DNA of 17,126 bases, from positions 1 to 17,126 of IMG/VR virus record IMGVR_UViG_2778261418_000005. One strand, 5' to 3'. This document shows positions 1 through 17,126 of this stretch, one piece after another. Every line of letters starts with the position of its first letter. Within the stretch, counting starts at the first letter, position 1. Source of the stretch: a virus (Duplodnaviria; Heunggongvirae; Uroviricota; Caudoviricetes). A program made the position numbers and the translations under genes. The notes below the pieces were generated by a model. It did no database searches. It saw nothing but the letters and a program-made list of their open reading frames with translations, and was not told the origin of the DNA.

Positions 1-88
1 TTCCCTACAGAGTGGCTTTGATAATGGCTTATACCCTACACGGGATAACTTAACTGATATCCCTTTTAACGGATAAACGGAGCCAACA

Positions 89-331
89 ATGGCAGAGATT
101 ATTCCCATGACTGAAGAACAGAAATTCCAGTTAGAGATTTACAAACTGGTCATGAACCAGAACGCAGCCGCGGAGGAAGCATTTCAATTCATTGGCACTG
201 ACGAACTGAAGCTTGAGCTATTCAAAATTCACTTCCAGTCAGGTGGCGCTAATTCAGATATCACGATCCGCACATTCGAAGCGGTGCGTAAATCGAAGGA
301 AGCGTTAGACCTGTTCACTACCGGAGCATAA
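89..331 (+). CDS. Hypothetical small protein (80 aa) immediately upstream of the terminase genes
   Basis: Intact ORF with a GGAG Shine-Dalgarno at 79-82, 6 nt before the ATG at 89; same strand and tight spacing with the downstream terminase genes. No recognisable motif. I recall a similar small ORF at this position in P22-like phages, from memory only. Confidence 0.55.
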   Translation: MAEIIPMTEEQKFQLEIYKLVMNQNAAAEEAFQFIGTDELKLELFKIHFQSGGANSDITIRTFEAVRKSKEALDLFTTGA

Positions 332-410
332 ACATGGCAACTCAAGGGTTCGACAACCCATCCAAATTCCGCGATGAATGGGATAAGCAAGCAGAAGGGA
401 AATAATCAAT

Positions 411-899
411 ATGGCAGCACCAAAGGGCAACCGATTTTGGGAGGCCCGCAGTAGTCATGGGCGAAATCCTAAATTCGAATCGCCTGAGGCGCTGTGGGCT
501 GCTTGTTGTGAATACTTCGAGTGGGTGGAAGCTAACCCGCTATGGGAGATGAAGGCGTTCTCGTATCAGGGTGAAGTGATACAAGAGCCTATCGCCAAGA
601 TGCGAGCGATGACTATTACAGGCCTCACTCTGTTCATTGATGTGACGCTTGAAACATGGCGCACATATCGCCTGCGAGAAGATTTATCTGAAGTCGTTAC
701 GCGAGCAGAACAGGTCATCTACGACCAGAAATTCTCTGGCGCAGCCGCTGACCTTCTCAACGCTAACATCATCGCCCGTGATTTGGGCCTCAAAGAGCAG
801 TCGCAAGTTGAAGACGTGACACCTGATAAGGGAGATCGCGATAAGCGGCGCTCTCGTATCAAGGAGCTATTCAACCGTGGAACTGGACGCGATTCTTGA
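411..899 (+). CDS. Terminase small subunit (P22 gp3 equivalent), 162 aa
   Basis: A 162-aa ORF directly upstream of and overlapping the large terminase gene; size and sequence ([15 protein letters not shown]...) match my memory of P22 gp3; contains the pac-like sequence at codons ~89-97. Confidence 0.88.
678..703. other. Candidate pac site (headful packaging initiation sequence) inside the small terminase gene
   Basis: Sequence GAAGATTTATCTGAAGTCGTTACGCG at 678-703 matches my recollection of the P22 pac site, which lies within gene 3 at roughly this codon position. From memory, not database-verified. Confidence 0.55.
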
Positions 900-2376
900 T
901 AACCTGAGCGACGAAGAGCAAATCGAATTGCTCGAGCTACTCGAAGAAGAAGAGAACTACCGTAACACACACCTGCTATATGAATTTACGCCATACAGCA
1001 AACAGCGTGAGTTCATCGACGCCGGGCATGACTATCCAGAGCGATGTTTTATGGCTGGTAACCAGCTTGGTAAGTCATTTACCGGTGCTGCCGAAGTCGC
1101 GTTTCACCTTACAGGGCGTTATCCGGGCACAAAAGGCTATCCTGCTGATGGTAAATATGGCGGTGAGTGGAAAGGTAAGCGTTTCTATGAGCCTGTTGTC
1201 TTTTGGATTGGTGGCGAGACAAACGAGACTGTAACCAAAACGACTCAACGCATCCTGTGTGGTCGTATCGAAGAGAATGGTGAGCCAGGCTACGGTTCCA
1301 TACCGAAAGAAGACATCATTAGCTGGAAGAAGTCTCCTTTCTTTCCGAACCTTGTTGATCACCTTCTGGTTAAGCATCACACGGCTGATGGCGTTGAAGA
1401 TGGCATTTCAATCTGCTACTTCAAGCCATACTCGCAAGGCCGCGCTCGCTGGCAGGGTGACACAATCCACGGTGTGTGGTTTGACGAAGAGCCACCATAC
1501 AGCATTTATGGCGAAGGGCTTACCCGTACCAACAAATACGGGCAATTCTCAATTCTGACGTTTACCCCGCTGATGGGGATGTCTGACGTTGTTACCAAGT
1601 TCCTGAAGAATCCCAGCAAGTCGCAGAAAGTGGTCAACATGACCATCTATGACGCTGAGCACTACACAGACGAACAGAAAGAGCAAATCATCGCATCCTA
1701 TCCCGAGCATGAGAGAGAGGCGCGTGCTCGCGGTATTCCTACGATGGGTAGCGGTCGAATCTTCCAGATACCGGAAGAGACGATTAAGTGTCAGCCGTTC
1801 GAGTGTCCTGATCACTTCTACGTAATTGGCGGGATGGATTTCGGATGGGATCACCCACAGGCGCAAGTTCAGCTTTGGTGGGATAAGGACGCAGACACAA
1901 TCTACGTTTCACGCGTGTGGAAGGCGAAAGAAAAAACAGCCGTTCAGGCATGGGGAGCCGTTAAATCATGGGCGCATAAAGTGCCAACCGCATGGCCTCA
2001 TGACGGAAACCAGCATGAGAAGGGCGGCGGTGAGCAGCTCAAAGGGCAGTATGCCGACGCTGGTTTTATGATGTTGCAGGAGCATGCGACATGGCCTGAT
2101 GGCGGTAACGCTGTGGAGCCTGGCATCACTGAATTGCGCGACATGATGCTCGATGGTCGCTTCAAAGTATTCAACACCTGTGAGCCATTCTTTGAGGAGT
2201 TCCGCCTCTATCACCGTGATGAAAACGGGAAAATCGTCAAGCTTAACGACGACGTTCTCTCAGCCGTTCGCTATGCATACATGATGCGCCGCTTCGCAAA
2301 AATGATGCGCGACATCAAAAAACCAAAAGAGAAAAAGATACCAGCCCCAATCAGGCCCATCGCACGGAGAACTTAA
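877..2376 (+). CDS. Terminase large subunit (P22 gp2 equivalent), 499 aa
   Basis: A 499-aa ORF overlapping the end of the small terminase gene by 23 nt; Walker A-like motif AGNQLGKS near the N-terminus; size and N-terminal sequence ([37 protein letters not shown]) match my memory of P22 gp2. Confidence 0.9.
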
Positions 2377-4542
2377 ATGGCCGACGAAAACAGACTCAAT
2401 TCCATTCTGTGTAAGTTTGACGCGGACTGGATGGCGAGCGATGAAGCCAGAACCGAGGCGACAAATGACCTGTATTTTAGCCGAGTGTCGCAATGGGATG
2501 ACTGGCTATCAAACTACACTACCCTGCAATATCGCGGACAATTCGATGTTGTTCGCCCGGTGGTCAGGAAACTGGTCGCAGAGATGCGCCGGAACCCTAT
2601 CGACGTTCTCTTCCGACCCAAAGACGGCGCTAATCCTGATGCTGCCGATGTGCTGATGGGGATGTATCGTACTGATATGCGCCATAACACGGCAAAAATT
2701 GCCGTTAACGTTGGCGTTCGTGAGCAGATAGAGTCCGGCGTTGGTGCATGGCGTCTGGTCACGCAGTACGAAGACAACGATCCAACAAGCAACAATCAGG
2801 TAATTCGACGCCTGCCAATTCATGAAGCCTGCTCACACGTCATATGGGACGCCAACAGCAAGCAGATGGATAAGAGCGACGCTAAGCACTGCACGGTGAT
2901 TAACGCTTTGTCACGCAATGGCTGGAAAGAGTTCGCAGAGGATTACGGTATTGATCCGGATACCTTGCCATCTTTCCAGAATCCGAACGATACATGGCTG
3001 TTTCCGTGGGTATCGAATGATGTCGTCTACGTCGCTGAGTATTACGAGGTCGAAGAGAAGAAAGAGAAAGTATTCATCTACCGCGACCCACTGACAGGTG
3101 AGCCAGTCAGCTATTACCAGCAGGATATCAAAGACGTCATCGACGACCTGGCTAATCGTGGATTCATTAAGGTAGCAGAGCGTAAGGTGAAGCGTCGGCG
3201 TGTGTATAAGTCGATTATCACCTGCACGCAGATACTGAAAGACCGCGAGAAGATAGCCGGAGAGCATATTCCAATCGTTCCAGTGTATGGCGAATGGTCA
3301 TTCGCTGGTGACAAGGAGTGCTACGAAGGAGTGGTAAGGCTGACGAAAGACGGTCAACGCCTTCGTAACATGATCATGTCATTCAACGCCGATATTGTTG
3401 CTCGTTCACCGAAGAAGAAACCGACCTTCTTCCCTGAGCAAATCGAAGGCTACGAATACATGTACGGTGGAAATGATGACTATCCGTACTATCTGCAGAA
3501 CAGGACCGATGAAAACGGTAACGACCTGCCGATTGGTCCAATCTCCTACATGGAAAACCCTGAAGTGCCGCAAGCCAACGCTTATATGCTTGAGGCTGCC
3601 ACCAACGCAGTGAAAGAGGTGGCTAGTCTTGGTGTGGATGCGCAGGCAGCAAACTCTCAGGTCGCTTTCGATACCGTCAATCAACTGAACATGCGGGCAG
3701 ACCTTGAGACATACGTGTTTCAGGATAACCTGGCTACCGCAATGCGACGTGATGGCGAGATTTATGCCTCAATGGTCAACGATATTTATGACGTTCCTCG
3801 TCATGTAACGCTGACACTTGAAGATGGAAGCGAGAAAGACGTTCAACTCTATGCGCAAGTTGTCGATTACCAGTCCGGCAATGTGGTCACACTCAACGAC
3901 ATTCGCGGTCGCTATGAGTGCTATACAGACGTCGGACCATCCTTCCAGAGTATGAAGGAACAGAATCGCGCAGAGATTCAGGAGTTGCTAACCAAGGTTC
4001 CGCAAGGTACTCCAGAGTTCCAGATGCTGATGCTGCAATACTTCACGCTGCTTGACGGTAAAGGCGTCGAGATGATGCGAGAGTACGCGAACAAGCAACT
4101 GGTGATGATGGGGCTGAAGAAACCAGAAACACCTGAAGAGATGGAGATGGTACAGCAGGCTCAACAGCAGCCGCAGCAGCCATCAGCAGAGCAAATTCAG
4201 GCGCAGGGCATTCTTCTGCAAGGTCAGGCTGAATTGCTCAAGGCAGAGAACCAACAGGCGCAGATTCAGGTTGAAGCCGCCAAGGTTGAAGCCCAAAACC
4301 AACTCAACGCCGCGAAGATTGCAGAAATCTTCAACAATATGGACCTCGACAAGCAGGCAGAACTGCGTGAGTACCTCAAGCTCGTAGGTCAATTCCAGCA
4401 ACAGCGCAGCAAAGATGCTCGTGCTAACGCTGAGCTGCTTCTTAAAGATGCAGACCAGACTCATTCACAACGCATGGATTTCGCGAATCTTATGCGTCAA
4501 GTTCAAATCCCCTCCGGCGGAGTAGCCGAGACACCTCAATAA
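2377..4542 (+). CDS. Portal protein (P22 gp1 equivalent), 721 aa
   Basis: A 721-aa ORF starting immediately after the large terminase stop (TAA at 2374-2376, ATG at 2377); size and position are those of a P22-type portal; long C-terminal Q/A/E-rich predicted helix typical of the P22 portal C-terminal barrel. Confidence 0.9.
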
Positions 4543-4555
4543 GAGAGAGTTAATC

Positions 4556-5467
4556 ATGGACCAAACCACCGACATTCAGGCTTCTGAAGAATTAACCCTG
4601 CCCGGCAATCATGCAGCGGCATCTGCTGATGGCTTAGTTGTCGATAATGCCAACGACAACGCAGGTCAGGAAGAAGGCTTCGAGATTGTCCTGAAAGACG
4701 ATGAGAAACCAAAACAAGACCCGGCAACTAATGCTGAATTTGCCCGTCGCCGCATCGAACGCAAACGCCAGCGTGAGCTTGAGCAGCAGATGGAAGCGGT
4801 TAAGCGTGGAGAGTTGCCGGAGCACCTGCGGGTGAGTCCTGAGTTACCAAAACAACCAGACCCTAACGATTATCTTTCCGAAGACGCACTGGCTAAGTAC
4901 GACTATGACCAGGGCCGCGCACTGGCTGCCTTCCAGCAGGCAAACAGTGAATGGCAGATCAAGGCTATGGACGCACGAAGCCAGGCTGTCGCCGAGCAGG
5001 GGCGAAAAACTCAGGAGTTCACCCAGCAATCAGCGCAATACGTCGAGGCAGCCCGTAAGCACTACGACGCAGCGGAAAAGCTCAACATCCCTGACTATCA
5101 GGAGAAAGAGGATGCATTCATGCAATTGGTGCCGCCAGCAGTCGGTGCCGATATCATGCGTCTCTTCCCGGAGAAATCCGCTGCTCTCATGTATCACCTT
5201 GGTGCTAATCCTGAGAAAACACGCCAGTTGCTGGCGATGGACGGGCAATCCGCGCTGATTGAACTCACTCGACTGTCAGAACGTTTAACTCTCAAGCCTC
5301 GAGCCAAGCCTGTTTCAGAAGCCCCGTTACCTGATGAACCCATTCAGGGACACGCTGTTGCTGCAAATATCTCTGCGATTGAAAAGCAGATGGAAGCGGC
5401 AGCAAACAAAGGGGATGTAGAGACATACCGCAAGCTCAAGGCGCAACTGAATAAAGGAATTCGATAA
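4556..5467 (+). CDS. Scaffolding protein (P22 gp8 equivalent), 303 aa
   Basis: A 303-aa ORF between portal and coat; highly charged and helical in composition (E/K/R/A/Q-rich); stop overlaps the coat start (TAATG at 5465-5469). Confidence 0.88.
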
Positions 5468-6762
5468 TGGCATTAAATGAAGGTCAACTGGTCACGTATG
5501 CTCTGGATGAAATCATCGAAACCGTCCAGAACCTGACGCCAATGGCGTCCAAAGTGACAAAATACACCCCTCCGGCAGAATCCATGCAGCGTTCAAGCAA
5601 CACCGTGTGGATGCCTGTTGAGCAGGAAGCGCCAACCCAGACTGGCTGGGATTTAACTGGCAAAGCAACCGGGATTCTGGAACTCTCCGTGAAATGCAAC
5701 ATGGGCGATCCGGATAACGATTTCTTCGAGCTTCGTGCAGATGACCTGCGTGATGAGCGTTCTTACCGTCGCCGCATCCAGGCATCCGCCAAAAAATTGG
5801 CGAATAACATTGAGTCAGCAATTGCCAAACAGGCAACCGAAATGGGCTCACTTGTTGTTCACGATACCCGCGCAATTGGTCCATCTACTGGCCTGTCTGG
5901 CTGGGATTTTGTGTCTGATGCAGAGCGACTGATGTTCTCCCGCGAACTCAACCGCGACATGGGAATCAGTTACTTCCTGAACCCTGACGATTACCGCAAA
6001 GCAGGCCGCAACCTGGTAGATGGTGACATCTTTGGGCGCGTTCCTGAAGAAGCGTATCGTAACGGTACTATTCAGCGTCAGATTGCTGGCTTTGATGAAA
6101 TTCTTCGCTCACCGAAACTTCCGGCAGTTACCAAGTCAACCGCTACTGGTGTAACTGTTTCTGGTGCGCAGAAGTTTAAGCCGCAGGCATACACCCTTGA
6201 TACCGATGGTAACAAAGAGAACGTCGACAACCGTGTTGCAACGGTGACCGTATCCTCAACCACCGGATTTAAGCGCGGCGACAAAATCAGCTTCACTGGT
6301 GTGAAATTCCTGTCTCAGATGGCGAAGAACGTGCTGACTGATGATGCTACTTTCTCAATCACCCGTGTGATCGATGGTACTCACATAGAAATCACGCCGA
6401 AGCCGATTGCGCTTGATGACGCTTCACTGACAAAAGAAGAGAAGGCTTACGCTAACGTAAACACCTCTCTTGCTGATACCACTCCGGTAAACGTTCTGAA
6501 CGTGGCAACAACCACCGCTAACGTGTTCTGGGCTGATGACTCAATCCGTCTGCTGTCTCAGCCGATCCCGGTAACCCATGAACTGTTTGCTGGCATGAAA
6601 ACGTCTTCCTTCAGCATTCCTGGTATTGGTGTTAACGGCATCTTCGCAACGCAGGGAGATATCAACACCCTGTCTGGTAAGTGCCGTATTGCTGTGTGGT
6701 ATTCAGCATGTGCTGTACGACCAGAGGCAATTGGTGTTGGTCTGCCTAACCAGACTGCGTGA
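5467..6762 (+). CDS. Major capsid (coat) protein (P22 gp5 equivalent), 431 aa
   Basis: A 431-aa ORF translationally coupled to the scaffold gene; size and position match the P22 coat protein; followed by a strong hairpin terminator. Confidence 0.9.
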
Positions 6763-6768
6763 TAACCA

Positions 6769-6793
6769 GAGGGAGCTTCGGCTCCCTTTTTTA
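6769..6793 (+). terminator. Intrinsic (rho-independent) terminator-like hairpin directly after the coat gene
   Basis: AGGGAGC-TTCG-GCTCCCT stem-loop (7-bp GC-rich stem, tetraloop) followed by TTTTTTA, starting 7 nt after the coat stop codon. Confidence 0.6.
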
Positions 6794-6806
6794 TCTGGAG
6801 ACAAGC

Positions 6807-7079
6807 ATGACACACATGATCTTTCGTCATGGCGACATGAAGAAGTGGAAAGGCGTTGGCTACGACTTTGAAATCGTGAAAGCCGAAGAGCTTCAGGAAT
6901 ATCTGGATGCTGGCTGGTTTTCACATCCTGATGACCTTTTGAAGGATGTTGCAGAGCCAGAGCCAGAGCCAGAGCCAGAGCAAGAGCCAGAGCAAGAGCC
7001 AGAGCAAGAAGAAAAACAGCGTAAAAAGCCTAGTCGAAAACCTAAGGCGGCAGCAGATGAACCTGACAACGAAGGGTGA
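6807..7079 (+). CDS. Hypothetical acidic protein with a tandem PE/QE repeat ([21 protein letters not shown]) and a basic C-terminal tail, about 90 aa
   Basis: ORF in the gap between coat and the gp4 equivalent; ATG at 6807 preceded by GGAG at 6797-6800; lies downstream of the coat terminator; 3' end overlaps the gp4-like start by 23 nt. The track ORF starts further upstream at 6759 (GTG), but that start would span the terminator hairpin. Confidence 0.45.
6954..7007. repeat. Hexanucleotide tandem repeat (GAGCCA/GAGCAA, 9 units)
   Basis: Direct reading: gagcca x4, then gagcaa/gagcca alternating; encodes the EP/EQ repeat in one frame and an SQ/SK repeat in the frame of the downstream gene. Confidence 0.9.
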
Positions 7080-7557
7080 TTTAGTTCTTGCGGCATTACG
7101 TAAGCTCGGTGTGGCATCAAATGCCACGTTAACCGATGTCGAACCGCAGTCTATGGAAGACGGCGTCAACGACCTTGAAATGATGATGGCTGAATGGCTT
7201 GGCGGTGATGCGTCACCAGGTATCAACGTTGGCTACATTTTCGCTGATGCAGATGTCGCTCCAGATCCGGGCGATGAGCACGGTTTATCAAATAACGCTA
7301 TCAATGCCGTCATTTTCAACCTTGCCTGCCGCATTGCTCCGGATTATGCGCTGGAAGCGTCTACAAAACTTATAACCACTGCCAGATACGGGAAAGAGCG
7401 ACTCGTCAAACTGTCTGCAATGGACAGAGCAAAAGCCGCTAAATGTAAGTCCGGTTATCCAAACCGTATGCCTGTTGGTAGCGGTAATCAGTTGGCGAAG
7501 TGGAACGGTTGGAATTACTTCCAGCGAAAGGAACCTTGCGATAACGGGAGCGAATAA
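7057..7557 (+). CDS. P22 gp4 equivalent (portal-associated head completion / tail adaptor protein), 166 aa
   Basis: Start chosen at the ATG at 7057 ([21 protein letters not shown]...), which gives 166 aa and matches my memory of the P22 gp4 N-terminus and length; AAGG at 7044-7047, 9 nt upstream. The track ORF extends upstream to 6946 through the repeat. Confidence 0.8.
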
Positions 7558-8975
7558 TGCCGATTCAGCAACTTCCGCTCATGAAAGGCGTCGGCAAAGA
7601 CTTCCGAAACGCCGACTATATCGACTATCTGCCAGTGAATATGCTGGCTACACCCAAAGAAATACTCAACAGCAGCGGATATCTTCGCTCATTCCCGGGC
7701 ATTGCCAAACGCTCTGATGTGAACGGCGTATCTCGCGGCGTCGAGTACAACATGGCGCAGAGTGCTGTTTATCGCGTGTGCGGGGGCAAGTTGTATAAGG
7801 GCGAAAGCGAAGTCGGTGATGTTGCCGGAAGTGGTCGTGTATCAATGGCTCATGGTCGGACATCACAGGCGGTAGGCGTTAATGGTCAACTGGTCGAGTA
7901 TCGTTATGATGGCACGGTTAAAACCGTCTCAAACTGGCCTACAGACAGCGGATTCACGCAGTATGAGTTAGGCTCAGTACGCGACATTACGCGCTTACGT
8001 GGGCGTTATGCGTGGTCAAAAGACGGCACTGATTCATGGTTTATCACTGACCTTGAAGACGAATCGCATCCTGACCGATACAGCGCACAATATCGCGCAG
8101 AATCGCAGCCTGACGGCATCATCGGCATCGGCACATGGCGAGACTTCATTGTCTGCTTTGGTTCATCGACGATTGAGTATTTCTCCCTGACTGGTGCAAC
8201 CACCGTTGGTGCTGCTTTGTATGTCGCACAGCCATCACTGATGGTGCAAAAAGGCATCGCCGGGACTTACTGCAAAACGCCGTTTGCTGATTCGTATGCA
8301 TTTATCAGCAATCCGGCAACAGGTGCGCCGTCTGTGTATATCATCGGCTCCGGTCAGGTATCACCAATCGCCAGCGCGAGCATTGAGAAAATCCTCCGCT
8401 CCTACACTGCTGATGAACTGGCTGATGGTGTGATGGAATCGCTGCGATTTGATGCTCATGAGTTGCTGATTATCCACCTTCCGCGCCATGTTCTCGTGTA
8501 CGACGCATCTTCAAGCGCCAATGGTCCGCAATGGTGTGTACTGAAAACAGGCCTGTATGACGATGTGTACCGCGCTATCGACTTCATTTACGAAGGCAAC
8601 CAAATAACGTGCGGCGATAAGCTTGAATCGATGACAGGGAAATTGCAGTTCGATATCAGCAGCCAGTACGACAAGCAACAGGAACACCTGCTGTTTACTC
8701 CGTTGTTCAAAGCAGATAACGCCAGAGTTTTCGACCTTGAAGTTGAGTCGTCAACTGGCGTTGCGCAGTATGCTGACCGCCTGTTCCTCTCTGCAACCAC
8801 TGACGGCATAAATTATGGGCGTGAGCAGATGATTGAGCAGAATGAACCGTTCGTTTACGACAAACGCGTTTTGTGGAAACGAGTAGGGCGCATCAGGAAA
8901 AACATTGGCTTCAAATTGCGCGTTATCACGAAGTCACCTGTCACTCTGTCTGGCTGCCAGATAAGGATTGAGTAA
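7557..8975 (+). CDS. P22 gp10 equivalent (head completion / tail hub protein), 472 aa
   Basis: A 472-aa ORF, the length I recall for P22 gp10; translationally coupled to the upstream gene (TAATG at 7555-7559); position after the gp4 equivalent. Confidence 0.85.
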
Positions 8976-9823
8976 TGGCGGATTCGAATCTCAATGTGCC
9001 GGTAATCATTCAGGCTACACGACTCGATACATCAGTCCTTCCACGCAATATCTTCTCGCAGTCATATCTGCTGTACGTTATTGCACAGGGTACTGATGTT
9101 GGTAACGTGGCGAACAAGGCCAACGAAGCAGGGCAGGGCGCTTATGACGCACAAGTCAGGAACGATGAGCAGGATGTGATTCTGGTCGATCACGAAATTC
9201 GACTGGCATCAGCTGAAGCGAAGATTCAGGACCACGAAACAAGGATCACTAACGCAGAATCGGCGATAGTCGGCCTTGATTCCCGATTAACGACAGCAGA
9301 AAACGATATTGATTATCTGACTGATGAAGTTATCGCCATTCAAAACACGCTTTCAGACCATGAAACGCGCATTGATGCTCTGGAGTATGCCACTACTCGC
9401 AAAAAGTCAGAGGTTGTTTACTCTGGCGTATCTGTAACCATCCCGACAGCGCCGACCAACCTTGTTAGCCTGCTGAAAACGCTCACGCCGTCATCCGGGA
9501 CGTTGGCACCATTCTTCGACACTGTTAACAACAAGATGGTTGTGTTCAACGAGAACAAAACCTTGTTCTTCAAGCTGTCGATCGTCGGGACGTGGCCCAG
9601 CGGAACCGCCAACAGGTCAATGCAGCTAACCTTTTCCGGCTCTGTTCCTGATACGCTGGTCAGCAGTCGTAATGCGGCGACAACAACCGACAACATCCTG
9701 TTAGTTACGTTCTTCAGCGTGGATAAAGACGGTTTTCTTGCCACAAATGGCAGTACGTTAACTATTCAGTCAAATGGGGCGGCGTTTACTGCCACAACCA
9801 TCAAGATAATCGCGGAGCAGTAA
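8975..9823 (+). CDS. Tail needle protein (P22 gp26 equivalent) with an extended C-terminal domain, 282 aa
   Basis: N-terminus [43 protein letters not shown] matches my memory of the P22 gp26 N-terminal tip; central heptad-like coiled coil; the C-terminal ~120 aa are S/T/N-rich and beta-like, and the protein is longer than the P22 needle. Confidence 0.85.
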
Positions 9824-10278
9824 TGATTCAGTTCAAACCAACGCGAAACATCGACTTGATCGAAGCAGTCGGAAATCACCCTGACATTATTGCCGGGAGC
9901 AACAACGGTGATGGATACGACTATAAACATGATTGCCGTTACTTTGAGGTGAACGTGCACGGGCAGTTCGGCGGCATTGTTTACTATCAGGAGATTCAGC
10001 CTTTGACCTTTGATTGCCACGCCATGTACCTGCCAGAGGTTCGTGGATTCAGCAAGGAAATCGGGCTGGCGTTCTGGCGATACATTCTGACTAACACCAC
10101 CGTTCAGTGCGTCACATCGTTCGCTGCGCGCAAATTCCGCCACGGTCAGATGTACTGCGCAATGATTGGCCTTAAGCGAGTAGGAACCATCAAGAAATAC
10201 TTCAAAGGCGTGGATGACGTGACTTTTTACAGCGCAACACGCGAAGAACTAATCGACTTCCTGAATCACGGGAGATAG
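9823..10278 (+). CDS. P22 gp14-position protein (head completion / ejection-associated), 151 aa
   Basis: Assigned by synteny only (between tail needle and ejection protein genes); TAATG coupling with the tail needle gene; no motif recognised. Confidence 0.6.
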   Translation: MIQFKPTRNIDLIEAVGNHPDIIAGSNNGDGYDYKHDCRYFEVNVHGQFGGIVYYQEIQPLTFDCHAMYLPEVRGFSKEIGLAFWRYILTNTTVQCVTSFAARKFRHGQMYCAMIGLKRVGTIKKYFKGVDDVTFYSATREELIDFLNHGR

Positions 10279-10280
10279 CC

Positions 10281-10973
10281 ATGTTATATGCATTTAAGCT
10301 GGGCAGAAAACTGCGCGGCGAGGAACCTTATTGCCCTGAAAAAGGCGGGAAAGGTGGCAGTTCTGATAAAAGCGCAAAGTATGCCGCAGAAGCCCAGAAG
10401 TATGCCGCAGACCTGCAAAATCAGCAGTTCAACACCATCATGAACAACCTGAAGCCGTTTACTCCTCTGGCTGATAAGTATGTCGGCAGCCTCGAGAACT
10501 TATCGTCTCTGGAAGGGCAAGGTCAGGCACTTAACCAGTATTACAACTCTCAGCAGTACAAAGATCTTGCTGGTCAGGCTCGCTATCAGAGTCTGGCGGC
10601 AGCGGAAGCAACAGGTGGATTGGGTTCCACTGCAACCGGTAATCAGTTAGCAACAATCGCACCAACGCTTGGTCAGCAATGGCTATCTGGTCAGATGAAC
10701 AACTACCAGAATCTGGCAAATATTGGTCTTGGCGCACTGCAAGGTCAGGCAAACGCCGGGCAAACATATGCCAACAATATGAGTCAGATTTCGCAGCAAA
10801 GTGCGGCTCTTGCAGCGGCAAATGCCAACAGACCATCAGCAATGCAATCTGCTATTGGCGGAGGTGCGTCTGGTGCTATTGCTGGGGCCGGACTTGCGAA
10901 ATTAATTGGTTCATCAACTCCGTGGGGGGCTGCGATCGGCGGCGGTCTTGGTCTGCTTGGCTCGTTGTTTTAA
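10281..10973 (+). CDS. Ejection (internal virion) protein, P22 gp7 equivalent, 230 aa
   Basis: A 230-aa ORF in the gp7 position; Q/N/A/G-rich with a glycine-rich hydrophobic C-terminus (GAIAGAGLAKLIG...GGGLGLLGSLF). Confidence 0.8.
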   Translation: MLYAFKLGRKLRGEEPYCPEKGGKGGSSDKSAKYAAEAQKYAADLQNQQFNTIMNNLKPFTPLADKYVGSLENLSSLEGQGQALNQYYNSQQYKDLAGQARYQSLAAAEATGGLGSTATGNQLATIAPTLGQQWLSGQMNNYQNLANIGLGALQGQANAGQTYANNMSQISQQSAALAAANANRPSAMQSAIGGGASGAIAGAGLAKLIGSSTPWGAAIGGGLGLLGSLF

Positions 10974-10983
10974 GGGGTAATCA

Positions 10984-12333
10984 ATGGCTACGTGGCAACA
11001 GGGTATTAATTCTGGTGGTTTTCTGGCTGGCATCGGTACGCAAAATGAGAATGCGCCAAAGGCAAGCGACATTAACGCAACGCTTGGTCTGATCCGCGAA
11101 AACAATGAACTGGCTCGCTCAGGTGCAAATAACATTGGTCTGACCGCGTTACGTGGTCTGGCTGGAGTTGCTGATATTTACAATCAGGAACAGCAACAGA
11201 AAGCGATTAGTGCGTTCAATAAGGTTCACGCTGATGCATGGGCTTCTGGTGATCCATCGGGACTATTTAAGTTTGCCCAGGAAAATCCAGCGTTTGTTGC
11301 ACAGGCACAACAGGCGTTTTCCGGTCTTAATGATCAGCAACGCAACGATATGGGCGATTTAGCCATGAGGGCTAACGTCGCTCTTTCTCAGGGACCGGAA
11401 GCCTACAGTAAATTCATTACTGACAACAAGGACAGGTTAAATCGCGTGGGGGCGAATGCTGACTGGATGATTCAGACAGGTATCCAGAATCCAGAGCAGC
11501 TATCACACATGCTGACTACTATGTCTCTCGGTGCGCTTGGACCAGAAAAGGCGTTTGCTGTTCAGGATAAGATGGTTGGTCGCCAGCAGGAGCAGCAAAG
11601 AATTAACGAAACCATTCGCAATAATGACATGACGAATGCGAGGGCTATTAGGGGGCAGGATCTTTCCTATAAGGCTCAAATGGCAAGACTGAATCACGAC
11701 AAGTATGTGTTTAAGCAGTCACAGGCGGCCCTTGAAAGAGCAGGACAACCTCAGGATATGGATGTTTTGTCTCTTAACTCACAGATAGCAGCGACGGGAA
11801 TTGATCCGCTAACCGGTAAAGCTGCAACGTCAGCCAGAATGTCTCAGGCTAAGAGATGGCTTGATGGCAACAATAATTACAACAATGCGTTGATTACTGG
11901 TGAGCGAGGGATAGAGAAAATAGATTCTTTGCTTGGTAAGAAGGAGCTTGAAGGTATCGGTCGCTTCGAAGGAAGAAATATAGATGGCTTCACAAGTGCT
12001 GAAGGGCTTGCAAACCGTAATGCGATAGAAGAATTAAAGTCGGGTGCGTTTGTCCAGAACGTGCAGACTATGCGAGGTATGGGTAGCCTCTCCAATGCTG
12101 AAGGACAAAAACTGGAAAACCTTATCGCGAAACTCGATATAACACAGCCTGAAGAGGTCGTCAGAAAACAGTTATCTGAAATCCGATCGCAATATTCTGT
12201 ATTTCAAAAGGTTGCAGCAAGGGAGGCTGAATCAATGGGATATAGTTCATCAGGTTATGACACATATGTTAGTGAGCGAAAATCAGGAAGCGACAGCAAT
12301 AAGTCCGGTTTCTCGTCTTTATGGGGTGATTAA
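10984..12333 (+). CDS. Ejection (internal virion) protein, P22 gp20 equivalent, 449 aa
   Basis: A 449-aa ORF in the gp20 position, same strand, 10-nt gap after the gp7 equivalent. Confidence 0.8.
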
Positions 12334-14492
12334 TGGCTAAAGCATGGAAAGATGTTATCGCTTCTCCACAGTATCAGGCGTTAACTGAAGAACAGAAAGC
12401 ACAGGCTCAAGCGCAATATTTTGATGAGGTTGTTGCCCCTAAGGCTGGTGACAAATGGGCTGAAGCAAGAGATCAGTTTTATGCAGCATACCCTCCGCAT
12501 CAGCAGCAGAAAGAAGAACCATCATTGATGCAACAAGCTGGCGATTGGCTCACAGGTGGTCAAAGTGCAGGGCAAATTGCAGAACAGGCTGGTCGTGGTC
12601 TGGTAAACATACCATTTGACGTATTGCAGGGTGGCGCAAGTCTGATTAATGCAATCAGCCAGGGGCTTGGTGGCCCCAAGGTTTTGGATGATGTTTATCG
12701 CCCTGTCGATCGACCGACAGACCGTTGGGCGCAAGCCGGTGAAACATTTGGTGGGTATCTCCTGCCAATTGGCACAGCGGCAAAAGCTGCTGGAGCGACA
12801 GCAAAGCTCGCAGGAGACATCGGTTCCGCAGGAAACATGATTGCAGGTTCTCTTGCTGATGCTGCAAATCAGGAGGGTGATTTTGCACAAAATGCTGCCA
12901 TTAACGGTGGTATCAATTTTGGTGCTCAAGGCGTTCTTTCAGGTGTCGGGCGCGTTATTGCGCCAAGGGTTTCACAGGCTCTTGGTGGTGCAGCACTGAA
13001 TTCTGCTAATGATGTTTCCAGGATGGCAAAGTCAGGTGCTGGGCGTCAGTCAATTGCCAGTCAGGCCGCTAATGTGTCCGAAGATGTAGCAAAAGCGGCT
13101 GAGTCTGCTGGAATTGATATAAACGCATTAACACCAGGAATGCGATCTGGAAGTCGTGGAATTGCACAAGCCGAAGGCGCATTGGCATCAACACCAGGAA
13201 TTGTTCAGGACGCCCATCAGGCAGCATTTAACGAAATATCATCAAAGTTAAGTCGAAACCTTGATGAATTTGGGGCCGCATCTGGAACGGCATCAGAAAA
13301 AAGTGCGGCTATAAAACAAAGGATTCTTCAAAATCTTGATCAGATGAAGGATGCCGAGCGCGCGGCATGGGATGACGTGCGGTCAACAATGCCAAATCAA
13401 AAAGCAAGAATGCTAAATGGTAATGCCGTTATTCAGGCAGAGCGATCTGCCGGCATACCGCTTACTCCTGAAATGAAACAGTTTGTTCAGGCAAACAATC
13501 AAGGTGGAGTAACATTTGATGGCATGAAAGCATGGAGAGCGAAATTTGCTGATGCGGAGCAAAAATATAAGCGTAGCGGAGAGGCAAATGCGGCAAGGAG
13601 AGCAGGGGAAATACGCCGGGCAATTACTGATGATATGCGCACAATGGCGGAAAACGGCGGATTTCTTGATGACTGGCAAAAAGCTAATGATCTGTCTAAA
13701 GCGAGGTTATCAGCACAAGAGAGTGCAGAGTCTGTTTTCGGGCGTGATTTGGCAACAGATGCACTGATTACGAATGGAGTAAAATCCCTTCAATCATCGT
13801 CAGCTAAAGGTCTTAATGGTCCTGCTGGATTCCATTCTATGATCCGCGCTCTGCCAGAATCAGAGCGTGTTCCTGCTATATCATCAATGTTGAAGGATGC
13901 CATCTCGCATGGTGTACGTGGTGGCAAAGCTGATGCAGCAGGAATTAACCATATCGCAGAGATACTCACTCCACAAAATGTAAAAGCCATTAGCCGATAT
14001 TCCTCAGAGCTTGGAAGAATTGCTGATGCATATGGCACTCTTGCAAGAGCAGCAGTGAAACCTCAGCAGTATATTGAAAGAACAGGGAGAACTGCCAATG
14101 TACTACGCGATCTGGATGCCGGTTTATCCAACATCACATCAGCAGTGTTAAATGCAATTGCCAACTCAACATCAGGTGCCATTGTTGGTGGCGCTGGAGG
14201 GGGCATTGCAGGCGCTGCCGTGGGTGCTTTAGTTGGCGCTGGGTTAAAAGGCGCTGTATCTAAAATTGCCACCACACGTAGTGGTCGATATGCGATAGAG
14301 AAAGCTGTTCAGGAAGCCACCAAAGCAGTAAGAGCTGGCGGAAGTAAAGAAGCATTAGCGGCGGCGGAACGCAGATTTATGGCAAATAAAGCCGCCGTAA
14401 AAGCAATACGTGATGCAGTTGGAAACGAAGAGTTCAATCGCTTAGCGAGGGCTGGCATTGTAGCGTCGCTAAGCGGAATAGCACAGGAGTAA
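12333..14492 (+). CDS. Ejection (internal virion) protein, P22 gp16 equivalent, 719 aa
   Basis: A 719-aa ORF in the gp16 position; translationally coupled to the gp20 equivalent (TAATG at 12331-12335); glycine-zipper-like hydrophobic segment near the C-terminus ([27 protein letters not shown]). Confidence 0.8.
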
Positions 14493-14816
14493 TTAATCAT
14501 CCATGGATGGATTGAGCTTATCTCGTGTTGATGTGGCGATTTGCCCTACATTCCTAAGCCAAGATTTCAAATCCTTGATATTGTCATTGATTTCATGAAT
14601 ATCTTCTTTTTTTAGTCTGTTAATATTATTCTCAATAATTTCAATGGATTGCTCAATATCAGATATAGTGAATGATAGTTTGTTCTTCTCATCTTTTATT
14701 GAGTTTTTAAGTGCTTCGTTCTCAGTCTTGAGGTCAGATATCTTTTGTTTTAAAGATGCCAGTTGGTACTGAACCACAATGAGTGCGATAGCTATCACGA
14801 TAACTGTTGTATACAC
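14493..14816 (-). CDS. Hypothetical membrane-anchored coiled-coil protein, 107 aa (accessory/moron gene)
   Basis: GTG start at 14816 preceded by AAGGAGG with a 5-nt spacer; N-terminal hydrophobic helix (YTTVIVIAIALIVV) followed by a K/E/N/I-rich heptad-like segment; strongly AT-rich compared with the flanking structural genes; stop codon abuts the gp16-like stop (TAATTA at 14490-14495). Confidence 0.55.
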   Translation of the reverse strand: MYTTVIVIAIALIVVQYQLASLKQKISDLKTENEALKNSIKDEKNKLSFTISDIEQSIEIIENNINRLKKEDIHEINDNIKDLKSWLRNVGQIATSTRDKLNPSMDD

Positions 14817-14933
14817 ACCAACCTCCTTAGTTTTGAGCAGGATACCATGAAAAAAGTAAACATCTTTTGCCTACTTCACATTTGAATGGTTTGTCATTAG
14901 GATGTTTCCGGTTTTTTAAATATGGAAATTGAT

Positions 14934-15353
14934 ATGAAGAGGATTATTGGCGTCGTTGCTGGCGCTATGATGTTATCTGGGTGCGCAACTATTGTTGGTG
15001 ATGAAACGCAACTTGTGCAAGTGAACAGCAACCCTTCCGGTGCGAGCTTTAAGGTAAAAGATGAATCAGGCGTGATTGTTGCGCAAGGCAAGACTCCACA
15101 AGGAGTAACTCTTGCCAAGTCAGATGGTAGTTATTTTGGCAAAAAGAGCTACCAGATCACTATGGAAAAGGATGGGTACGAACCAGTTACCCTGCCAATC
15201 AAAGCCAATGCTAATGGTTGGTATATTGGTGGAAACCTTGTGTTTGGTGGGTTAATCGGTTGGCTTGCTGTTGATCCATTTAATGGTGGGATGTATACAT
15301 TGAAGCCAAAAGAGGCAAATGCATCTCTTATACCTTCTACGAAGCAAGATTAA
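14934..15353 (+). CDS. Putative lipoprotein with a PEGA-like domain and a glycine-rich C-terminal segment, 139 aa
   Basis: Signal peptide MKRIIGVVAGAMMLSGC with lipobox LSG-C; a following segment (NPSGASFKV...GKTP...KDGYEPV) resembles the PEGA domain pattern; C-terminal GWYIGGNLVFGGLIGWLAVDPFNGGMY. Start at 14934 preferred over the track's 14922. Confidence 0.7.
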   Translation: MKRIIGVVAGAMMLSGCATIVGDETQLVQVNSNPSGASFKVKDESGVIVAQGKTPQGVTLAKSDGSYFGKKSYQITMEKDGYEPVTLPIKANANGWYIGGNLVFGGLIGWLAVDPFNGGMYTLKPKEANASLIPSTKQD

Positions 15354-15358
15354 GAAAT

Positions 15359-15386
15359 GAAACCCACCGTCAGGTGGGTTTTTTAT
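15359..15386. terminator. Bidirectional intrinsic terminator between the convergent lipoprotein and peptidase genes
   Basis: AAACCCACC-GTCA-GGTGGGTTT hairpin with a T-run downstream on the + strand (TTTTTAT) and a T-rich run on the - strand (TTTCATTTCTT); lies between the stops at 15353 (+) and 15410 (-). Confidence 0.6.
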
Positions 15387-15409
15387 AAGGAGTAATCATG
15401 ATTTACCCA

Positions 15410-15946
15410 TCAAACAACCCACCAGTTTGCCTGATTGGATACCAGCCTTGCAGTTTTTATGGAATTAATTATGCCATGCTCAAGAGCCTTGTTAGCATCC
15501 AAAATGGTCGAGTCTGCTATCAGGGATGCCCACCTAATATGGGTTCCGATGTCGATATTGAACGCCTCAACGAAGCGATCAAGATCGTTATCGAGGCATT
15601 TCCCGTACTCTCTCAATCTGGCATGGTCGGCGGCTGGGGTGGCAAAGCCCCATAATAGAGGATGTAACAGGAATCTTGATAATGGGTTTGCGAAACGTTC
15701 TGAGCCAGCCAGGAAAACGATATTAGCTATGGATTCAACATTGCTTATGTTGTGAGTTCTAACGGTAACAGGGAGTGACTTAAGAAAGTTATACGCAGTA
15801 AAGCCAGCGGCAGTTTCCCCTCCCTGACTTGATATATGGATATTTAATTCAGTTGCGCCCTGAGATAATGCGGTGAGACAGTGGTTCTGAAGTTGCCCAA
15901 CAGTGGCAGTGTTAACGGGGCATAAGAAATGAATTGTGTGCAGCAT
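15410..15946 (-). CDS. Minimal ClpP-fold (peptidase S14-like) serine peptidase, 178 aa
   Basis: Collinear match to the ClpP core as I recall it: NIHISSQGGETAAGFTAYNFL against ClpP YINSPGGVITAGMSIYDTM; SIANIVFLAG against catalytic-Ser SMGAFLLTAG; LLHPL against MIHQP (His); a D-S-T segment near the ClpP Asp position; C-terminal HGIINSI against YGLVDSI. Start codon overlaps the stop of the upstream Mnt-like gene (TAATG). Confidence 0.7.
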   Translation of the reverse strand: MLHTIHFLCPVNTATVGQLQNHCLTALSQGATELNIHISSQGGETAAGFTAYNFLKSLPVTVRTHNISNVESIANIVFLAGSERFANPLSRFLLHPLLWGFATPAADHARLREYGKCLDNDLDRFVEAFNIDIGTHIRWASLIADSTILDANKALEHGIINSIKTARLVSNQANWWVV

Positions 15947-16182
15947 TATTTTTCATCCTTACCATACATGGTCTTTAGCGTCTCAAGCAGCGCCTCCCTG
16001 AATTTGTCAGCCTCTTTCTGAGCAAATTCATTGCTATTAAGCGATCTACCACAAACAGCATCTTCGATAATCTGTATTATTTCAGCATTCATGGAACGCT
16101 TGTTATGTTGCGCCCTAGCTTTAACCTTTGCCTTTAACTCTTTGGAAATTCTAATATTTATTTGCGGCTCTTCGCGTGACAT
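15946..16182 (-). CDS. mnt: Mnt-like ribbon-helix-helix repressor, 78 aa
   Basis: N-terminal RHH pattern (INIRISKELKAKVKARAQHNKRSMNAEIIQIIEDA) similar to my memory of P22 Mnt; divergent from the arc-ant genes as in P22 immI; GGAGG 4 nt upstream of the ATG. Confidence 0.82.
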   Translation of the reverse strand: MSREEPQINIRISKELKAKVKARAQHNKRSMNAEIIQIIEDAVCGRSLNSNEFAQKEADKFREALLETLKTMYGKDEK

Positions 16183-16205
16183 ATCACCTCCATAGCATTT
16201 TGGTG

Positions 16206-16234
16206 ATATTACTATTGCATCACTGCGATCACAA
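16206..16234 (-). promoter_or_regulatory. Candidate Pmnt promoter (leftward)
   Basis: On the - strand: -35 TTGTGA (16229-16234), 17-bp spacer, -10 TAATAT (16206-16211); about 25-30 nt upstream of the mnt-like start. Confidence 0.4.
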
Positions 16235-16243
16235 TGGTATAAC
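16215..16243 (+). promoter_or_regulatory. Candidate Pant promoter (rightward), overlapping Pmnt
   Basis: -35 TTGCAT (16215-16220), 17-bp spacer, TG-extended -10 TATAAC (16238-16243); about 28 nt upstream of the arc-like start. Confidence 0.45.
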
Positions 16244-16253
16244 GGTTATACCA
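16235..16253. promoter_or_regulatory. Perfect 19-bp palindromic operator candidate (Mnt-like operator)
   Basis: TGGTATAAC-G-GTTATACCA is exactly self-complementary around the central base; overlaps the candidate Pant -10 and start site, as the Mnt operator does in P22. Confidence 0.55.
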
Positions 16254-16270
16254 AATTGATTGGAGGTAAT

Positions 16271-16444
16271 ATGATAGTCAAGTCAGACGCACCAAAGTAC
16301 CCTTTGCGCATCCCATTAGAGGTTAAGTTAGCAATCGAGAAGTCAGCGAAAGAAAATGGTCGCTCAATAAATACCGAGATGGTAATGCGGTTGGTGGATA
16401 GTTTAAGGCGGGATAGTTCTAAAGGTAATCTAGCAAAAAGTTGA
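16271..16444 (+). CDS. arc: Arc-like ribbon-helix-helix repressor, 57 aa
   Basis: [38 protein letters not shown] aligns in length and pattern with my memory of P22 Arc (MKGMSKMPQFNLRWPREVLDLVRKVAEENGRSVNSEIY); GGAGG at 16262-16266; directly upstream of ant. Confidence 0.8.
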
Positions 16445-16507
16445 AGCCCCAACTGCGGGAACAGTCAGGGCTTCGGTTGTCAGTAAATCCGTGGAGAAAA
16501 ACCAACA
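16433..16507 (-). ncRNA. Candidate sar-like antisense small RNA covering the ant ribosome-binding site and start codon
   Basis: On the - strand: a TATACT -10 element (16513-16518) inside the ant 5' end, then about 70 nt downstream a hairpin (16443-16474) followed by a T-run (AACTTTTTGCTA). The size and placement parallel the roughly 69-nt sar RNA of P22. Promoter -35 is weak; ends are approximate. Confidence 0.4.
16443..16474 (-). terminator. Hairpin acting as a terminator on the - strand only (arc-ant intercistronic region)
   Basis: GAAGCCC...GGGCTTC stem with an inner ACTG/CAGT stem; followed by a T-run only in the - orientation, so rightward arc-ant transcription would read through. Confidence 0.5.
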
Positions 16508-17126
16508 TGAATAGTATAGCAATTTTAGAAGCAGTGAACACCTCTTACGTACCATTCAACGGTCAGCAAATTATCACCGCCATGGCTGCCGGAGTTGCAT
16601 ATGTTGCGATGAAGCCAATCGTTGAAAACCTTGGAATGAGCTGGTCAACGCAGCAAACAAAACTCATGAAGCAGATTAGCAAATTCAACTGTGTTCATAT
16701 GAACATGGTTGCTGCTGATGGGAAGCTTCGTAAGTTACTCTGCCTTCCTTTGAAGAAGTTAAATGGATGGCTGTTCAGCATCAACCCTGAGAAAGTTCGT
16801 GCTGACATCCGTGATAAACTTATTCAGTACCAGGAAGAATGCTTTACTGTGCTGCATGACTACTGGACGAAGGGAAAGGCAGAAAATGCACGTAAGAAAA
16901 CATCTGTTGATGACAGGACTCCGCTTCGTGATGCTGTAAATATGCTGGTCAGCAAAAAGCATCTAATGTACCCAGAAGCTTATGCAATGATTCATCAGCG
17001 TTTCAATGTGGAAAGTATTGAAGAGCTTGATGCATCTCAGATACCGAAAGCCGTAGAGTACATCCACAGGGTAGTGCTTGAAGGTGAGTTCATTGGCAAA
17101 CAAGAGAAGAAAACCAACGAGCTTTC
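16507..17126 (+). CDS. ant: Antirepressor Ant, N-terminal part (ORF continues past the window end)
   Basis: Open frame from the ATG at 16507 to the window end with no stop (206 codons); N-terminus [21 protein letters not shown] matches my memory of P22 Ant; located immediately after arc as in P22 immI. Confidence 0.8.

Follow-up and report, generated by a model that had tools for sequence, protein, structure and literature searches.

A ClpP paralog of Pseudomonas plecoglossicida, PpClpP1, is the closest described relative of the protein considered here. It is truncated at the N-terminus, has Ser73 and His96 and carries a proline in the place of the catalytic aspartate (Protein Data Bank (PDB) entry 9UXT; PLoS Pathog 2026, PMC12900304). 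By analytical ultracentrifugation and cryo-electron microscopy, PpClpP1 is a homotetradecamer with a pore of 42.7 Å; its peptidase activity is 13-fold below that of the canonical paralog, its Ser and His are essential and its third residue is dispensable, and ClpX was not pulled down with it (PMC12900304). Together with the canonical ClpP it forms a stable heterotetradecamer that, with ClpX, degrades substrates faster than the canonical enzyme alone; prophages are nowhere mentioned in that paper (PMC12900304). Further parallels are offered by Pseudomonas aeruginosa ClpP2, Listeria ClpP1 and Mycobacterium tuberculosis ClpP1P2, for which the working model is that a second ring unable to bind the unfoldase stacks on the canonical ring and alters assembly, rate or cleavage pattern, P. 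aeruginosa ClpP2 being termed a 'rheostat' (PMC13056064). Here we analyse a 17,126-nucleotide stretch of viral DNA (positions 1 to 17,126 of the IMG/VR record IMGVR_UViG_2778261418_000005; hereafter the window), in which an open reading frame (ORF) of 178 amino acids overlaps the 78-amino-acid ORF of a Mnt-like repressor. By sequence, predicted structure and architecture, the 178-amino-acid protein belongs to the PpClpP1-type short ClpP family and, because it is encoded behind mnt and related to the characterised PpClpP1, it is probable that the phage supplies a second ClpP to its host.

The window comprises the late-gene arm of a P22-like (Lederbergvirus-type) Escherichia coli phage or prophage and, beyond it, an immunity-I (immI)-type region. 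Matches to PHROG families give the rightward order small and large terminase, portal, scaffold, coat, gp4-, gp10- and gp26-like proteins and ejection proteins. The region beyond the gene-16 ejection protein resembles P22 immI in gene order and orientation, in its Mnt-like and Arc-like ribbon-helix-helix (RHH) proteins, in an operator-like palindrome and a conserved sar segment, and in having a lysogen-side cargo position downstream of mnt. This position holds ORF59 and sieA in P22, on the same strand as mnt, whereas the window has a ClpP paralog joined to mnt by a one-base overlap; the DNA-binding half of Mnt and the operator sequence also differ between the two. The features on which the argument turns are as follows; Asp145 is listed because an earlier reading of this DNA from its letters (the first-pass annotation) had taken it for the catalytic aspartate.

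15410..15946, minus strand: gene of the short ClpP paralog, 178 amino acids, N-terminally truncated and gate-less (Pfam PF00574, AlphaFold2 model, 9UXT match)
15733-15731, minus strand: codon of catalytic Ser72 (alignment with E. coli ClpP)
15664-15662, minus strand: codon of catalytic His95 (alignment with E. coli ClpP)
15511-15509, minus strand: codon of Ser146, in the column of ClpP Asp171 (alignment with E. coli ClpP)
15514-15512, minus strand: codon of Asp145 (alignment with E. coli ClpP)
15946..16182, minus strand: gene of the Mnt-like RHH repressor, 78 amino acids (Pfam Arc, alignment with P22 Mnt)
15944..15948, minus strand: TAATG stop/start overlap, translational coupling (read directly)
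15956..15960, minus strand: AAGGA Shine-Dalgarno sequence of the peptidase gene, within the 3' end of mnt (read directly)
15360..15381, no strand assigned: hairpin, likely a bidirectional terminator (minus-strand terminator-like site and sequence)

The 178-amino-acid ORF is no chance reading frame, because it matches Pfam CLP_protease and has 68 full-length homologues that share the start M-L-H-T-I/V-H-F. The Pfam match (PF00574; E-value 4.5e-12, 46.7 bits against a gathering score of 20.2) spans protein residues 24-165 and positions 37-180 of the 182 in the profile. An AlphaFold2 model computed with 25 homologues (predicted local distance difference test score 91, predicted template-modelling (TM) score 0.87) contains, on superposition, the core α/β fold and the handle of ClpP, and Foldseek gave TM scores of 0.77-0.82 to the ClpPs of E. 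coli (about 0.8), Staphylococcus aureus and Listeria (0.82 for ClpP1/2). The ClpP fold that the first-pass annotation had proposed is thus upheld by both profile search and model. Ser72 and His95 are in register with E. coli Ser97 and His122 (mature numbering) and invariant in the 25 homologues, at identities down to 31%, so two of the three triad residues named earlier stand. The third does not: Asp145, in the motif IADST, lies one residue off the column of ClpP Asp171, which is occupied by Ser146 here, by Pro in PpClpP1 and by a small residue across the family, and both columns are non-conserved.

The earlier reading had also held that the N-terminal axial region and the C-terminal extension of ClpP are missing. 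Relative to the E. coli ClpP precursor the protein begins near residue 37, so that propeptide, axial loop and helix A are indeed all absent, but the C-terminal end is not: it lies ~11 residues beyond the E. coli ClpP C-terminus and bears a family-conserved N-W-W-V motif. Compared with canonical E. coli ClpP (MEROPS S14), the protein therefore keeps the core fold, Ser-His, the SxGG loop and the handle helix; it differs in an identity of 21-23%, in having none of the three N-terminal elements, in the replacement of Asp171 by Ser, in another C-terminal tail and in mostly polar residues at the positions of the IGF/IGL-loop pocket. For that pocket we take E. coli Y60, Y62, F82, I90, M92, F112 and L114; the aligned residues are N35, H37, S57, H65, I67, F85 and N87, five of the seven being polar. 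The score against the canonical ClpP equivalog TIGR00493 (NCBIfam) is 22 bits, short of a cut-off of 308.6, which makes the name 'ATP-dependent Clp protease proteolytic subunit' from the Prokaryotic Genome Annotation Pipeline a generic one. By sequence and model, then, the protein is predicted to be a ClpP-fold peptidase with a Ser-His pair and with neither a conserved third acid nor an N-terminal gate.

Within the PDB, the family profile placed 9UXT far ahead of every ClpP (E-value 9.5e-51, full length). The single sequence matched the same entry with an E-value of 4e-35, residues 3-175 aligning with 4-179 at 38-40% identity, and Foldseek superposed the AlphaFold2 model on 9uxt_A with a TM score of 0.91 and a root mean squared deviation of 1.9 Å. 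The two proteins are of one length class (178 and 183 amino acids), share the N-terminal truncation and begin ...H-x-I-H-F; Ser72 and His95 are in register with Ser73 and His96, a non-acidic residue takes the place of the ClpP aspartate in both, and the family-specific residues W99, E113 and D121 are all present. They differ at the third position (Pro in PpClpP1, Ser146 here) and in setting, since PpClpP1 is described as a chromosomal paralog and the 178-amino-acid protein is prophage cargo, co-translated with an immI repressor, in a host genus that has a single ClpP, its oligomer and partner being predicted by analogy. (The chain of 9UXT as printed by HMMER has the triad proline at residue 150, which the paper calls Pro151; Ser73 and His96 agree.) These likenesses place the protein in the PpClpP1-type family, and the characterised homologue points to an alternative ClpP subunit rather than to a stand-alone novel enzyme.

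In GenBank the homologous gene of phiv205-1 is annotated as a head-maturation protease, which would make the window's gene a displaced or degenerate prohead protease. Profile searches lend this some colour: the best PHROG match is phrog_94, head maturation protease (E-value 1.3e-21), and the top two NCBIfam models are a ClpP-like prohead protease/capsid fusion and the ClpP-related head maturation protease NF045542. Their bit scores, however, lie far under the curated cut-offs (51.8 against 475 and 50.1 against 120), the match is confined to the ClpP core of a 622-position profile, and identities are 27-30% to phage proteases and at most 24% to viral structures in BFVD, against 38-40% to cellular PpClpP1. 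What is shared with the phage enzymes (phrog_94, NF045542) is the ClpP-like catalytic core, and the protein has no scaffold or capsid-targeting extension. Maturation of P22-type heads involves no protease, and among the PHROG matches the head module at 411-6762 (terminase, portal, scaffold, coat) contains none, in agreement with the earlier view that virion assembly does not explain the gene. The gene itself lies on the opposite strand, outside the head module and beyond the ejection-protein genes, and it also occurs in lambdoid and Mu-like prophages, in tail or early regions. We regard a head-protease origin as hardly credible, and both public names, 'ATP-dependent Clp protease proteolytic subunit' and 'head maturation protease', are misleading.

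The coupling of the peptidase gene to mnt was read directly. The minus-strand letters across the junction are ...ggtAAGGAtgaaaaaTAATGctg; the TAA stop of mnt (15948-15946) and the ATG of the peptidase gene (15946-15944) have base 15946 in common, and AAGGA at 15960-15956 lies 9 nucleotides 5' of that ATG; the overlap and the Shine-Dalgarno sequence had been noted in the first-pass annotation. Downstream, the G+C-rich hairpin at 15360-15381, AAACCCACC-TGAC-GGTGGGTTT with T/A runs on either side, likely ends both the mnt-peptidase transcript and a convergent lipoprotein gene. The same hairpin forms the left edge of a mobile block (block starts at 15356-15363), which comparison of the window with other genomes delimits as follows.

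15356..16027, no strand assigned: mosaic block of terminator, peptidase gene and last 26 mnt codons, 15946-16027 (comparison with EC.P3, phiv205-1 and PhiR12_1)

A functional unit of Mnt and peptidase, as the earlier reading implied, is not supported, on two counts. A phmmer search with the window's Mnt and Arc, covering all ORFs of 93 short-ClpP loci with flanks of 4-5 kb on each side, found an Arc/Mnt-like gene at only three E. coli phage loci (L001-L003) and none at the other 90, and within E. coli the partners reassort. The mobile unit is shared at 98% identity by EC.P3, phiv205-1 and PhiR12_1, in which the DNA-binding half of Mnt is unlike that of the window; junctions between block and mnt fall at 15986, 16016 or 16027, and at least four mnt junction classes precede the peptidase gene in E. 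coli. Conversely, the window's mnt allele accompanies the peptidase in only 8 E. coli genomes, and in Kapi1 (L095 2297-2739) and several E. coli genomes it overlaps an unrelated 69-amino-acid gene (phrog_16466), the junction there falling exactly at the mnt stop. That several mnt alleles occur with the peptidase, and the window's allele with other cargo, argues for a shared promoter and against a two-part system. On this comparative evidence Mnt would supply the promoter and is no functional partner of the peptidase, and the position behind mnt appears to serve P22-like immI regions generally as a slot for translationally coupled cargo. A conserved two-gene system was accordingly rejected, with an Arc/Mnt partner at 3 of 93 loci. 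Co-variation of the Mnt C-terminus with the peptidase was weighed too, since the final 26 codons of mnt travel in the mobile block, and was likewise rejected: the same C-terminal sequence occurs in peptidase-less alleles (Kapi1), and the junctions lie at several points of this conserved stretch.

The layout nevertheless resembles that of a type II toxin-antitoxin system, with a small RHH gene first, an overlapping second gene and autoregulation, so that the Mnt-like protein might be an antitoxin that neutralises a toxic, unregulated peptidase, in a toxin-antitoxin or abortive-infection pair. The RHH protein does match FitA-like and HicB antitoxin RHH profiles; it also matches Pfam Arc (E-value 5.9e-13), is 38% identical to P22 Mnt over its full length and sits in a full immI setting of palindrome, divergent arc-ant and sar. 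With the pairing conserved only in one E. coli phage clade, partners that reassort freely and phage E212 possessing the peptidase gene and no RHH gene, we consider such a pair very improbable. E212, a sewage isolate (L004 4055-5161), keeps the short-ClpP gene, unannotated in GenBank; similarity stops 20 nucleotides past the start of the gene, ahead of the tailspike gene the record has no mnt, arc or ant annotation, and the arrangement looks like an immI deletion.

The same data bear on the suggestion that the peptidase is a dedicated immI regulator, clearing leaky Ant, Arc or repressor fragments as a post-translational back-up to Mnt. Such a role would suit the tight translational coupling and the setting in E. 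coli, where, among the matches listed, an Arc-family gene adjoins the peptidase gene and arc-ant lies beyond. It would also suit the transfer of the whole module (short ClpP, mnt-like, arc-like, antirepressor) into a lambdoid siphovirus, PhiR12_1 (L003 4048-6060), between the tail-tip genes L and K. Yet the block is found joined to various mnt alleles and to antirepressors of several types (Ant, P22AR C-terminal domain, Bro-N, antirepressor N-terminal domain), the window's mnt allele works with other cargo in Kapi1, E212 retains the peptidase after losing mnt-arc-ant, and prophage homologues 53-60% identical have no Arc/Mnt gene in flanks of 4-5 kb on each side. We judge a dedicated regulator improbable. 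PhiR12_4 and PhiR12_5 show the same insertion in a lambda-like siphovirus, and from these sequences the immI-like module appears to move between podovirus and siphovirus backbones.

Beyond E. coli the short form is a sizeable family: an exhaustive search of representatives returned 524 clusters at E ≤ 1e-10, the best of them mostly 180-190 amino acids in length, and a scan with one genome per species found 191 relatives. Its settings fall into two kinds. In Massilia, upstream neighbours, a polysaccharide deacetylase among them, are conserved in ~60 genomes, and on this synteny the short ClpP reads as an ordinary chromosomal gene; in Pseudomonas the neighbours differ by locus and are non-phage genes in the three loci with flanks scanned (L081, L087, L093). 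Within Massilia (loci L020-L079, which include other Oxalobacteraceae) the gene is near-universal, with a 169-amino-acid protein of no known family and the polysaccharide deacetylase upstream, loci that may hint at a cellular role of the family. In Enterobacterales and Chromobacterium, by contrast, every locus whose flanks gave domain matches is a prophage (the neighbouring genes of one, L014, gave none). In these prophages it occurs singly, in opposite orientation to the genes around it, among late, early or tail genes of different prophage types, and the homologues of Klebsiella, Proteus, Pantoea, Rahnella and Chromobacterium prophages are the 53-60% identical proteins mentioned above.

Klebsiella, four different prophages: between lysis genes and small terminase
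Proteus, prophage: between N and erf-side early genes
Chromobacterium, prophage: between tail-fibre and lysis genes
Pantoea dispersa, prophage: between tape measure and Mu-type DNA-circulation protein
Rahnella, prophage: beside terminase gpA

Judged by position, this stand-alone, opposite-strand placement in varied prophages has the signature of a moron. The Klebsiella protein P0026 (238 amino acids; L005-L008 5001-5717) has a ~52-residue N-terminal extension without counterpart in any homologue, and its real start is probably the internal M-I-H-T-V-H-F. In the Proteus prophage (L009-L012 6421-8051) a Peptidase_M78 and DUF4411 pair stands beside an S24 repressor, ~1 kb from the short-ClpP gene, and is probably another accessory or defence pair. 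Among complete E. coli genomes the short-ClpP gene is present in 128 of 5426 (~2%). Strains with the module include E. coli ATCC 11775 (= DSM 30083), APEC IMT5155 and DE205B, the last as lysogen of phiv205-1. As a signal of foreign DNA, GC content is not distinctive.

Moron-like placement is also what a single-gene anti-phage or superinfection-exclusion effector would show, a gate-less peptidase that, alone or with host ClpP, protects the lysogen as SieA does, acting on unfolded or injected proteins of incoming phages or on a host factor needed by them. The gene occupies the sieA slot of P22 and, in other genera, classic opposite-strand moron sites; the interval from the gene-16 homologue to the peptidase is filled, in E. 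coli prophages, by variable cargo (a Panacea-domain protein, YafO toxin or lipoproteins), the first two being of toxin-antitoxin or defence type; the Proteus copy lies near the M78-peptidase/DUF4411 pair beside a repressor; and the pore of the homologue PpClpP1 is wide open (PMC12900304). Against this, a scan of the pair and its neighbours with PADLOC-DB v2 (5027 models) returned no family at E ≤ 0.1 for the peptidase, consistent with the first-pass annotation, which recognised no named defence system in it, and a literature search gave no paper tying a ClpP paralog to phage defence. The intrinsic activity of PpClpP1 is low, and the chromosomal settings in Massilia and Pseudomonas imply that defence is not the ancestral role of the family. 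We hold an exclusion effector to be possible, if rather unlikely.

The reading we favour, by a modest measure, is that the gene is lysogen-expressed cargo supplying a PpClpP1-type alternative ClpP subunit. The peptidase gene would be a moron in the variable slot just downstream of immI mnt. In the lysogen, Mnt would hold Pant off with Pmnt on, ribosomes finishing mnt would re-initiate at the overlapping ATG, and the transcript would stop at the hairpin at 15360-15381. The product is expected, from PpClpP1, to build heptameric rings and a 14-mer, its pore wide and open and its intrinsic peptidase activity weak (PMC12900304), and to be itself unable to dock ClpX or ClpA. Its ring would most likely stack on a ring of the host's single ClpP, giving a hybrid whose host ring alone could take a ClpX or ClpA cap; this could retune the rate or cleavage pattern of ClpXP and ClpAP in the lysogen, like the 'rheostat' P. 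aeruginosa ClpP2 (PMC13056064). In this the working model resembles the P. aeruginosa, Listeria and M. tuberculosis systems, which unlike the present family are full-length chromosomal paralogs with N-terminal regions; the short ClpPs have no N-terminus and, here, are delivered by a phage. The prophage could gain by excluding other phages, by a more stable lysogeny or through the fitness of its host.

The gene is intact in 126 of the 128 E. coli carriers (at least 80% coverage), which speaks for an alternative ClpP subunit, and its place downstream of mnt agrees with the lysogen-side accessory module proposed earlier, expression being predicted from that position. Several points weigh against the model. 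The case for a heterocomplex extrapolates, across only 38-40% identity, from two Pseudomonas proteins that evolved together in a single genome. A consensus promoter scan of the mnt-arc spacer passed no site, the best candidate (TTGTGA, 17 nucleotides, TAATAT) agreeing with the consensus at 8 of 12 positions. Comparison of the E. coli alleles gave 5 synonymous-only and 4 amino-acid-changing polymorphic codons, a variation too low for the ratio of non-synonymous to synonymous change (dN/dS) to show any purifying selection.

E. coli and its relatives are textbook single-ClpP organisms. The protein class is already known through PpClpP1; what is new, and unexpected, is a phage-delivered second ClpP in single-ClpP hosts, wired to a lysogeny-maintenance promoter. 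Our literature search, of incomplete coverage, found no paper on the gene in phages or prophages, nor any description of it in connection with phiv205-1 or E212, and no protease or Clp protein in the slot was found in the SieA paper (PMC10883804). If the short ClpP mixes with host ClpP, a central protease, with RpoS, SOS proteins, lambda O and numerous regulators under its control, would come to be tuned by prophages. That would amount to lysogenic conversion, and possibly phage exclusion, of a new kind, and PpClpP1, the only studied member and one presented as a drug target, would be recast as part of a phage-mobile family. A bolder proposal, which we advance tentatively and think unlikely, is that temperate phages of Enterobacterales, hosts that possess a single ClpP, deliver a gate-less ClpP subunit that, with host ClpP or alone through its open pore, reprograms cytoplasmic proteolysis to exclude superinfecting phages. 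Were the exclusion reading true, it would be the first single-gene prophage defence built on ClpP, as well as the first instance in which a virus contributes a subunit to the host Clp machine. The position downstream of mnt holds sieA in P22, a 69-amino-acid gene in Kapi1 and a short ClpP in the window, and as a general cargo slot it is a convenient place to look for further lysogen-expressed functions.

The remaining features of the immI region lie on the far side of mnt.

16183..16270, no strand assigned: divergent mnt-arc control region (palindrome and inverted repeat; promoters predicted)
16256..16444, plus strand: gene of the Arc-like repressor (Pfam Arc, 2.6e-12)
16443..16474, minus strand: hairpin in the arc-ant spacer (sar segment of epsilon34)
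16507..17126, plus strand: antirepressor gene ant, 5' part, running off the window (translation and annotation of homologous E. coli prophages)

The divergent control region is analogous to P22 Pant/Pmnt. The mnt-arc spacer holds a perfect, operator-like 17-bp palindrome, GGTATAACGGTTATACC, at 16236-16252, and with an RHH domain, a divergent arc-ant and this symmetric element all present, the 78-amino-acid protein reads as a P22-type immI Mnt repressor. A perfect 8-bp inverted repeat, ATATCACC N13 GGTGATAT, at 16181-16209 spans the mnt start codon and Shine-Dalgarno sequence; a second operator is one possibility, an mRNA hairpin controlling mnt translation another. The arc ORF (16256-16444) diverges from mnt, and its real start is likely the ATG at 16271, which GGAGG precedes. 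Between arc and ant, positions 16437-16500 share 100% identity with the epsilon34 stretch annotated as the small antisense RNA sar, and the hairpin there has 14 pairs on the minus strand; sar control of ant is probably intact in the window phage.

Beyond the gene-16 homologue and before the peptidase gene lie two further cargo genes. The 107-amino-acid product of the first (14493-14816, minus strand) is hydrophobic over an N-terminal segment and gives weak coiled-coil/spanin-like matches (phrog_5962). That of the second (14922-15353, plus strand), 143 amino acids long, carries a lipoprotein-type signal and matches the PEGA domain weakly (phrog_6823), and it is this lipoprotein gene that converges with the peptidase gene across the hairpin. 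The two genes occupy the place of P22 sieA and could encode exclusion proteins. Just after gene 16, the 34 nucleotides at 14814-14847 are 100% identical in EC.P3, phiv205-1 and E212, in surroundings that are not shared, and may represent a conserved promoter, terminator or recombination joint.

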